64,000 bases of DNA. It comes from Escherichia coli. GTDB lineage: Bacteria; Pseudomonadota; Gammaproteobacteria; Enterobacterales; Enterobacteriaceae. Shown one piece after another: positions 3,001 to 6,000 of this stretch. How positions within the stretch are numbered: position 1 is the stretch's first letter; each line of letters opens with the position of its first letter. Location: the NCBI RefSeq assembly GCF_048403405.1, contig NZ_CP183129.1. One strand, 5' to 3'. The position numbers are program-made.

Positions 3001-6000
3001 GCAATGGCCCGTACTCAGGCACCGCACTCTGCAACTGCACAGTTCTTCATCAACGTGGTTGATAACGACTTCCTGAACTTCTCTGGCGAAAGCCTGCAAG
3101 GTTGGGGTTACTGCGTGTTTGCTGAAGTGGTTGAAGGCATGGACGTGGTAGACAAAATCAAAGGTGTTGCAACCGGTCGTAGCGGTATGCACCAGGACGT
3201 GCCAAAAGAAGACGTTATCATTGAAAGCGTGACCGTTAGCGAGTAATCGTGGCGACACTCTTTATTGCAGATCTTCATCTCTGCGCGGAAGAACCGGCGA
3301 TCACCGCCGGTTTTCTGCGTTTTTTAGCGGGGGAAGCCCGCAAGGCCGACGCGCTGTATATTCTTGGCGATCTGTTTGAAGCGTGGATTGGCGACGACGA
3401 TCCCAACCCACTCCATCGCCAGATGGCGGCAGCGATCAAAGCGGTGTCCGATTCCGGCGTTCCCTGTTATTTCATTCATGGCAACCGTGATTTTCTGCTC
3501 GGCAAACGCTTTGCCCGTGAAAGCGGCATGACGTTATTGCCGGAAGAAAAGGTGCTCGAACTGTATGGTCGCCGGGTGTTGATTATGCATGGCGACACGC
3601 TGTGCACCGATGACGCCGGTTATCAGGCTTTTCGCGCCAAAGTCCACAAACCCTGGCTGCAAACGCTATTCCTCGCCCTGCCGTTGTTTGTGCGCAAACG
3701 CATTGCCGCGCGAATGCGAGCGAACAGCAAAGAAGCCAACAGCAGTAAATCGCTGGCGATCATGGACGTTAACCAAAACGCGGTGGTCAGTGCGATGGAA
3801 AAACATCAGGTGCAATGGCTGATCCACGGGCATACCCATCGCCCGGCGGTGCATGAACTTATCGCCAATCAGCAACCTGCTTTTCGCGTGGTACTCGGTG
3901 CCTGGCATACGGAAGGTTCAATGGTGAAAGTCACGGCAGATGACGTTGAGCTGATTCATTTTCCGTTTTAAATACCCGCAACTTTGCTGATTTCACAGCC
4001 ACGCAACCGTTTTCCTTGCTCTCTTTCCGTGCTATTCTCTGTGCCCTCTAAAGCCGAGAGTTGTGCACCACAGGAGTTTTAAGACGCATGTCTTCCCGCA
4101 ATAATCCGGCGCGTGTCGCCATCGTGATGGGGTCCAAAAGCGACTGGGCTACCATGCAGTTCGCCGCCGAAATCTTCGAAATCCTGAATGTCCCACACCA
4201 CGTTGAAGTGGTTTCTGCTCACCGCACCCCCGATAAACTGTTCAGCTTCGCCGAAAGTGCCGAAGAAAACGGTTATCAGGTGATTATTGCGGGCGCAGGC
4301 GGCGCAGCGCACCTGCCTGGCATGATTGCCGCCAAAACGCTGGTGCCAGTGCTGGGCGTGCCAGTACAGAGCGCCGCACTGAGCGGTGTCGATAGCCTCT
4401 ACTCCATCGTACAAATGCCGCGTGGCATTCCGGTGGGTACGCTGGCGATTGGTAAAGCTGGCGCGGCAAACGCGGCGTTACTGGCAGCACAAATTCTTGC
4501 AACTCATGATAAAGAGCTACACCAGCGTCTGAATGACTGGCGCAAAGCCCAGACTGACGAAGTGCTGGAAAACCCGGACCCGCGAGGTGCGGCATGAAAC
4601 AGGTTTGCGTCCTCGGTAACGGGCAGTTAGGCCGTATGCTGCGTCAGGCAGGCGAACCGTTAGGCATTGCTGTCTGGCCGGTCGGGCTGGACGCTGAACC
4701 GGCGGCGGTGCCTTTTCAACAAAGCGTGATTACCGCTGAGATCGAGCGCTGGCCGGAAACCGCATTAACCCGCGAGCTGGCGCGCCATCCGGCCTTTGTG
4801 AACCGCGATGTATTCCCGATTATTGCTGACCGTCTGACTCAGAAGCAGCTTTTCGACAAGCTTCACCTACCGACCGCACCGTGGCAGTTACTTGCCGATC
4901 GCAGCGAGTGGCCTGCGGTGTTTGATCGTTTAGGTGAGCTGGCGATTGTTAAGCGTCGCACTGGTGGCTATGACGGTCGCGGTCAATGGCGTTTACGCGC
5001 CGATGAAACCGAACAGTTACCGGCTGAATGCTACGGCGAATGTATTGTCGAGCAGGGCATTAACTTCTCTGGCGAAGTGTCGCTGGTTGGCGCGCGCGGC
5101 TTTGATGGCAACACCGTGTTTTATCCGCTGACGCATAACCTGCATCAGGACGGTATTTTGCGCACCAGCGTCGCTTTCCCGCAGGCCAACGCACAGCAAC
5201 AAACACAAGCCGAAGAGATGTTGTCGGCGATTATGCAGGAACTGGGCTATGTGGGCGTGATGGCGATGGAGTGTTTTGTCACCCCGCAAGGTCTGTTGAT
5301 CAACGAACTGGCTCCTCGTGTGCATAACAGCGGTCACTGGACACAAAACGGTGCCAGCATCAGCCAGTTTGAGCTGCATCTGCGGGCGATTATCGATCTG
5401 CCGTTACCGCAACCGGTAGTGAATAGTCCGTCGGTGATGATCAACCTGATTGGTAGCGATGTGAATTATGACTGGCTGAAACTGCCGCTGGTGCATCTGC
5501 ACTGGTACGACAAAGAAGTCCGTCCGGGGCGTAAAGTGGGTCATCTGAATTTGACCGACAGCGACACATCGCGTCTGACCGCGACGCTGGAAGCCTTAAT
5601 TCCGCTGCTGCCGCCGGAGTATGCCAGCGGCGTGATGTGGGCGCAGAGTAAGTTCAGTTAACCTGGTGCTCATTTGATTGCCGGATGCGGCGTGAACGCC
5701 TTATCCGACCTGTGGAAACAGTGATATTTCCAGGTCGGATAATCAGCATCGCATCAGGCACAAATACCGAATGCCTACGACTACAGCGAAATACAGGTCC
5801 CCGCTTCGCCCGCCAGCGTCTCTTCAATCCGCGATAACGCCCCAATCCACGCAGGTTTACCACGGCTTCTGACATAGCCACTCACCGCAGTCACCTTCGG
5901 CCCCATCGAACCATCGGCTTTGGCAAATGGCGCTAACTCATCCGGTGTGGCATGGCGAATGGCACGTTGCTGCGGCGTTCCCCAGTTTTCATATACCGCA

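Follow-up and report, generated by a model that had tools for sequence, protein, structure and literature searches.

The 64-kb stretch of Escherichia coli chromosome analyzed here, referred to as the window throughout, carries the purine genes purE and purK downstream of lpxH, with all three genes on the plus strand. lpxH (3249–3971), a 240-aa ORF, is separated from purE by a spacer of 116 bp (3972–4087), and its stop codon lies 29 nt before the 16-bp element that is the subject of this analysis. The first gene of the operon, purE (4088–4597), encodes N5-carboxyaminoimidazole ribonucleotide mutase (169 aa) and is followed by purK (4594–5661), which encodes N5-carboxyaminoimidazole ribonucleotide synthase (355 aa); the two reading frames share 4 nt where purE stops and purK starts. 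The coordinates of both genes follow from the collinearity of window positions 1–49887 with E. coli TUM14771 (99.984% identity) and, for purE, from the RefSeq annotation of identical or near-identical genomes; a mechanical ORF list contained a longer purE ORF with a TTG start (4061–4597). When a 901-base query over the site was compared with complete E. coli genomes, 5425 of 5426 were matched at 95–100% identity, with the flanks annotated as lpxH and purE. The repressor gene purR lies outside the window; given that it was found in 5424 of the 5426 complete E. coli genomes, the source genome almost certainly carries it as well.

purEK adjoins the allantoin (purine breakdown) cluster, which occupies window positions 5781–25700 and comprises ybcF, ylbF, ylbE, fdrA, allDCE, glxK, ybbY, allB, allW, glxR, hyi, gcl, allR, allA and allS. 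A scan of this region (5781–25700) with the PurR weight matrix described below returned no PurR-like sites of at least 11 bits. The convergent glxK–allE spacer holds a match to STnc480 (13860–13926, minus strand; Rfam, 84.9 bits, gathering score), and a second small RNA match, to naRNA4/CssrE (41469–41546, plus strand; Rfam, 71.9 bits, gathering score), lies between a hypothetical gene and ybbJ. No tRNA genes were found in the window. From about 47771 to 64000, on the minus strand, the window runs inside a gene of ~20.8 kb for the siiEA (BapA-related) adhesin, which is followed by type I secretion genes; in the near-identical genome TUM14771 the adhesin gene carries an annotated frameshift. 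Two identical 16-mers, CGGTGACCGTTTGCCC, at 57730–57745 and 63118–63133 (5388 nt apart) appear to be part of the internal repeats of the siiEA gene.

Reading the lpxH–purE spacer directly, we found the 16-bp imperfect palindrome ACGCAACCGTTTTCCT at 4001–4016, here treated as the PUR box, or PurR operator, of purEK and assigned to neither strand. Its central CpG is at 4008–4009 and its 5' edge is 87 nt before the purE ATG. The box is identical to the purF-type box ACGCAAACGTTTTCTT at 14 of 16 positions, the mismatches being at positions 7 and 15. Compared with ACGNAAACGTTTGCNT, the consensus given in PMC3159470, it shows two mismatches whichever strand is read, again an agreement of 14 in 16. 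It therefore combines the 16-bp imperfect palindrome, the central CpG and the consensus match of a PUR box, and it lies in the control region of a purine gene, over what conservation would place as the promoter. The original prediction had counted 14 matches out of 16 to the PUR box consensus, which is true against both reference strings. Its coordinates for the box and its gene context were likewise right according to the sequence and to the annotation of matching genomes, and the wider range that it gave, 3972–4087, is precisely the intergenic region between the lpxH stop (3971) and the purE ATG (4088).

A functionless chance likeness to the PUR box would be easy to obtain with a permissive search. 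Indeed, with up to 3 mismatches to one consensus string, 0.77 matches are expected per window, so that a match is expected in over half of shuffled windows, and the search is uninformative at that cut-off. We therefore turned to a search limited to 2 mismatches and to a matrix test. At the 2 mismatches observed, just 0.04 matches are expected per 64-kb window, and any match occurred in 4 of 100 shuffles. For the weight matrix we took the PurR motifs that Cho et al. 2011 list for K-12 (PMC3159470, Table 1) and withheld that of purEK, which left 27 for training. The purEK box then received a leave-one-out score of 19.9 bits, the training sites themselves spanning 12.0–25.8 bits. This score corresponds to an exact p of 1.2e-7 per position, or an expectation of ~0.015 sites per window and ~2.4e-5 in the 116-bp spacer. 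Of 300 Markov simulations, 5 attained it, as did 8 of 500 shuffles. The runner-up in the whole window scored 10.7 bits. A chance origin is already refuted by the retention of the box across genera and by its ChIP occupancy in K-12, both presented below, and the statistics exclude it too; we consider it vanishingly improbable. A second PurR site near purEK was also considered and dropped, as among the 12 top-scoring sites of the window (comprising every site of at least 8.8 bits) all but the box itself lay more than ~9 kb away from it.

The operator of this operon has been characterized in K-12, and the window from 3975 to 4120, box included, is identical to K-12 MG1655. The sole differences in the spacer are a 1-base indel and one substitution at 3970–3975, beside the lpxH stop. 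The 16-mer occurs once in the K-12 locus (NC_000913.3, 553172–553187, minus strand), and the reverse complement of 4001–4016, AGGAAAACGGTTGCGT, is exactly the motif that Cho et al. 2011 report for the purE-purK region occupied by PurR in their K-12 ChIP-chip data (PMC3159470 Table 1). The log2 enrichment of PurR at purE-purK in that study was 2.08 with adenine and 0.86 without it (PMC3159470 Table 1), and purEK is listed there among the IMP-synthesis units under PurR-hypoxanthine repression (PMC3159470). The purEK 16-mer is furthermore included in a set of 15 RegulonDB PurR sites (PMC2585596 Table 2). Comparison with the K-12 operator was the check proposed with the original prediction, and an operator mapping elsewhere in the spacer had been named as the result that would speak against it; all 16 bases proved to be the same, and the K-12 motif falls on 4001–4016. 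The reading of the site as a PurR-type operator of purEK is thus supported by K-12 identity, by the ChIP-chip motif and by the RegulonDB listing. To regard it as expected conserved regulation was also apt: the purEK operator is already known, is an expected member of the enterobacterial PurR regulon and is unchanged from K-12. PurR binding and its purine dependence at this site are expected by analogy, from published data that were obtained on the identical sequence in K-12.

The lpxH–purE spacer exists in two forms. The window and K-12 share the short form. In 1026 of 5425 E. coli genomes (about 19%), the alignment of the spacer begins only at window base 4001, and these genomes appear to have the long form. 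In the long-form loci inspected, which came from two E. coli and from Escherichia albertii (L004, 5553–6000, E. coli AR_0086; L003; L005, 1076–1405, E. albertii), a segment of ~420 bp stands in place of the 29 nt at 3972–4000 of the window. This segment encodes a hydrophobic hypothetical ORF of 109 aa (WP_001188440.1) between lpxH and the box, for which a Pfam search gave no significant match. Homology to the window returns exactly at the first base of the box, and two substitutions are found just 3' of it (4017 and 4020). The weakest E. coli alignments over 4001–4087 had 2 mismatches, and in AR_0086, the one inspected, both were outside the box. The presence of the long form in E. albertii suggests that it is the ancestral one.

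To follow the site across species, we scanned species-representative genomes for the PurE protein, which gave 80 loci, and for 49 of these we applied the matrix to the 300 nt that precede purE. In Enterobacterales the same box or a one-base variant of it was present 85–137 nt before the purE ATG, in Escherichia albertii, Citrobacter, Leclercia, Kluyvera, Enterobacter, Klebsiella, Serratia, Yersinia and Pectobacterium as well as in Erwinia, Pantoea stewartii, Rahnella, Hafnia, Photorhabdus, Providencia and others. A box of at least 17 bits was found upstream of purE in 28 of the 29 free-living Enterobacterales loci, coding-region controls scored at most 9.7 bits, and the exact 16-mer was recovered from 18 loci outside E. 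coli. PUR-like boxes also precede purE in Vibrio, Haemophilus and Aggregatibacter (some Pasteurellaceae). No box (at most about 4 bits in the 300 nt scanned) was detected upstream of purE in Alphaproteobacteria, a Bacillota genome, Marinobacterium, Alteromonadales and two reduced Pantoea symbionts. The box is therefore kept at the orthologous position in relatives and is missing where the regulon is missing.

One position of the box departs from the consensus in a consistent manner. At position 7 (window 4007), most Enterobacterales have the non-consensus C (AACCG, not AAACG), Citrobacter and Photorhabdus have T, and Providencia, Arsenophonus and Vibrio have the consensus A. Retention of this C may reflect a tuned affinity for the repressor.

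An alignment of 15 upstream regions revealed three conserved islands amid freely varying sequence: the box, TGnTATTCT at 4030–4038, and CACAGGAG at 4069–4076 (plus strand). The last is an invariant block that contains the purE Shine-Dalgarno sequence AGGAG (4072–4076) and lies 11 nt before the ATG. The second island is invariant at T4030, G4031, T4033, A4034, T4035 and T4038, with variable bases around them, and these six positions are the ones that matter most in an extended −10 element. On this ground we assign a putative extended −10, TGcTATTCT, to 4030–4038 (plus strand; TG at 4030–4031, hexamer TATTCT at 4033–4038). TGnTAnnnT was present in all 29 Enterobacterales loci (29/29), and the gap from the end of the box to TG was always 13 nt even though the bases within it vary; in Vibrio, a TATAAT hexamer begins at a distance from the box equal to that of the Enterobacterales −10 hexamer. 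Because this gap is invariant in the 29 Enterobacterales loci, the −35 would be TTTTCC at 4010–4015 (plus strand), which matches TTGACA at 3 of 6 positions, lies inside the right half of the box and precedes the −10 hexamer by 17 nt. A generic promoter scan of 3800–4300 called no sigma-70 promoter, since the putative −35 is weak and accompanied by an extended −10; to be called, a −35 hexamer has to match at 4 or more of its 6 positions, so that the scan is blind to promoters of this type.

Transcription of purEK would start near 4045–4047 (plus strand), 7–9 nt past the −10 hexamer. Tiedeman et al. reportedly mapped, in 1989, the 5' end of the K-12 purEK transcript to 41 nt before the ATG, which we take to correspond to window position 4047. 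The probable position of the operator relative to the transcription start draws on conservation together with this reported K-12 5' end.

The placement of a promoter element inside the box raises the question of whether the 16-mer is kept just as a part of the purEK promoter, that is, as the −35 and its upstream region, without any repressor binding. The right half of the box does coincide with the −35 position, and its distance from the −10 is constant. A decayed site points in the same direction: in Candidatus Pantoea persica (locus L014, about 1404–1419), the left half is eroded (GGCGAACC), but both the right half, GTTTTCCT, and the extended −10 remain intact, which suggests that promoter constraint acts on the right half too. 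However, the left half, ACGCAA(C/T)C, lies beyond the −35 position on its upstream side and shows no more variation than the right half; the entire 16-mer fits the PurR matrix at 19.9 bits; and the occupancy of this sequence by PurR in K-12 in vivo responds to adenine. We therefore consider it very unlikely that promoter function alone maintains the site. The right half probably has a dual role, in which the operator role is not replaced.

Two further Pantoea stinkbug symbionts (loci L025 and L031) had no box whatever. The pattern among the Pantoea symbionts fits a loss of PurR control in reduced genomes with retention of the promoter part.

Alternatively, the main role of the site could lie in a roadblock to read-through from ppiB-lpxH, or in the binding of another LacI-family regulator that recognizes a similar CG-centred palindrome. 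Read-through is conceivable, as the promoter and terminator scan of 3800–4300 found no terminator-like site between lpxH and the box, and PurR has been reported to block elongation at purB and purR (PMC3159470). Across genera, the box keeps strictly to its 13-nt spacing from the −10, which argues instead for control of initiation, and a roadblock would be at most an extra effect of the same PurR binding. As for another regulator, we found no data for any at 4001–4016. Taken as the main role, either version appears highly improbable, and more so than a purely promoter-based explanation.

A riboswitch or leader RNA was also considered as a competing regulator and dropped. The purEK leader gave no Rfam match, even at E-values up to 1, its predicted fold was no better than that of shuffled sequences (z = +0.98), and the leader from the −10 to the ribosome-binding site differs in sequence and length between genera. 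We thus found no RNA-level mechanism that would compete with the operator.

Considering these results together, we conclude with near certainty that 4001–4016 is the purEK operator for the LacI-family purine repressor PurR, which probably acts here by blocking initiation through promoter occlusion; no evidence against the PurR-operator reading turned up in this analysis. According to the proposed mechanism, a PurR dimer with hypoxanthine or guanine as corepressor would bind the 16-bp imperfect palindrome, whose right half would cover the −35 position of a promoter that relies on its extended −10 (TGcTATTCT, 4030–4038). Bound PurR would then exclude RNA polymerase, and both purE and purK would be off when purines are abundant. 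We infer the exact −35, the transcription start and occlusion as the mode of repression, the last because the right half of the box falls on the −35 position, at the fixed 13-nt spacing from the extended −10. PurR motifs generally sit at −35 and −10 elements (Cho et al., PMC3159470), which agrees with an occlusion model for purEK.

Whether the purEK box goes further and is a dual-purpose element, with its right half (GTTTTCCT) also serving as the −35 region of the extended −10 promoter so that operator and promoter are locked together, is a proposal on which we are evenly divided. If so, this arrangement would account for the invariant 13-nt spacing and for the near-invariant non-consensus C at position 7, which would perhaps set PurR affinity below its maximum. 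The box would also mark the outer limit of loss that is harmless to purEK control, given that the ~420-bp indel ends at its 5' edge.

The value of this analysis is that of an annotation check: the strain retains the canonical control of purEK by PurR, its operator, promoter and ribosome-binding site being the same as in K-12, and what is known of the purine regulon is not extended. Comparison across genera nevertheless provides a clean example of a repressor site merged with the −35 position of a promoter.

The closest known system is the purEK operator of K-12 MG1655 itself, which is alike in 16 of 16 bases, in the region from 3975 through the purE start, in the flanking genes and in orientation; it is unlike only in two small changes near the lpxH stop, which leave operator and promoter untouched. 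The purF operator, ACGCAAACGTTTTCTT, the reference PUR box for PurR–DNA structures, is likewise a CG-centred imperfect palindrome of 16 bp that is bound by the same repressor and shares 14 of 16 bases, but the purEK box has C for A at position 7 and C for T at position 15. The PurR sites in the coding regions of purB and purR involve the same repressor and belong to the same motif family as the purEK box. At those two genes, however, elongation is reportedly blocked from within the reading frame (PMC3159470), whereas at purEK the site precedes the gene and overlaps the putative promoter.
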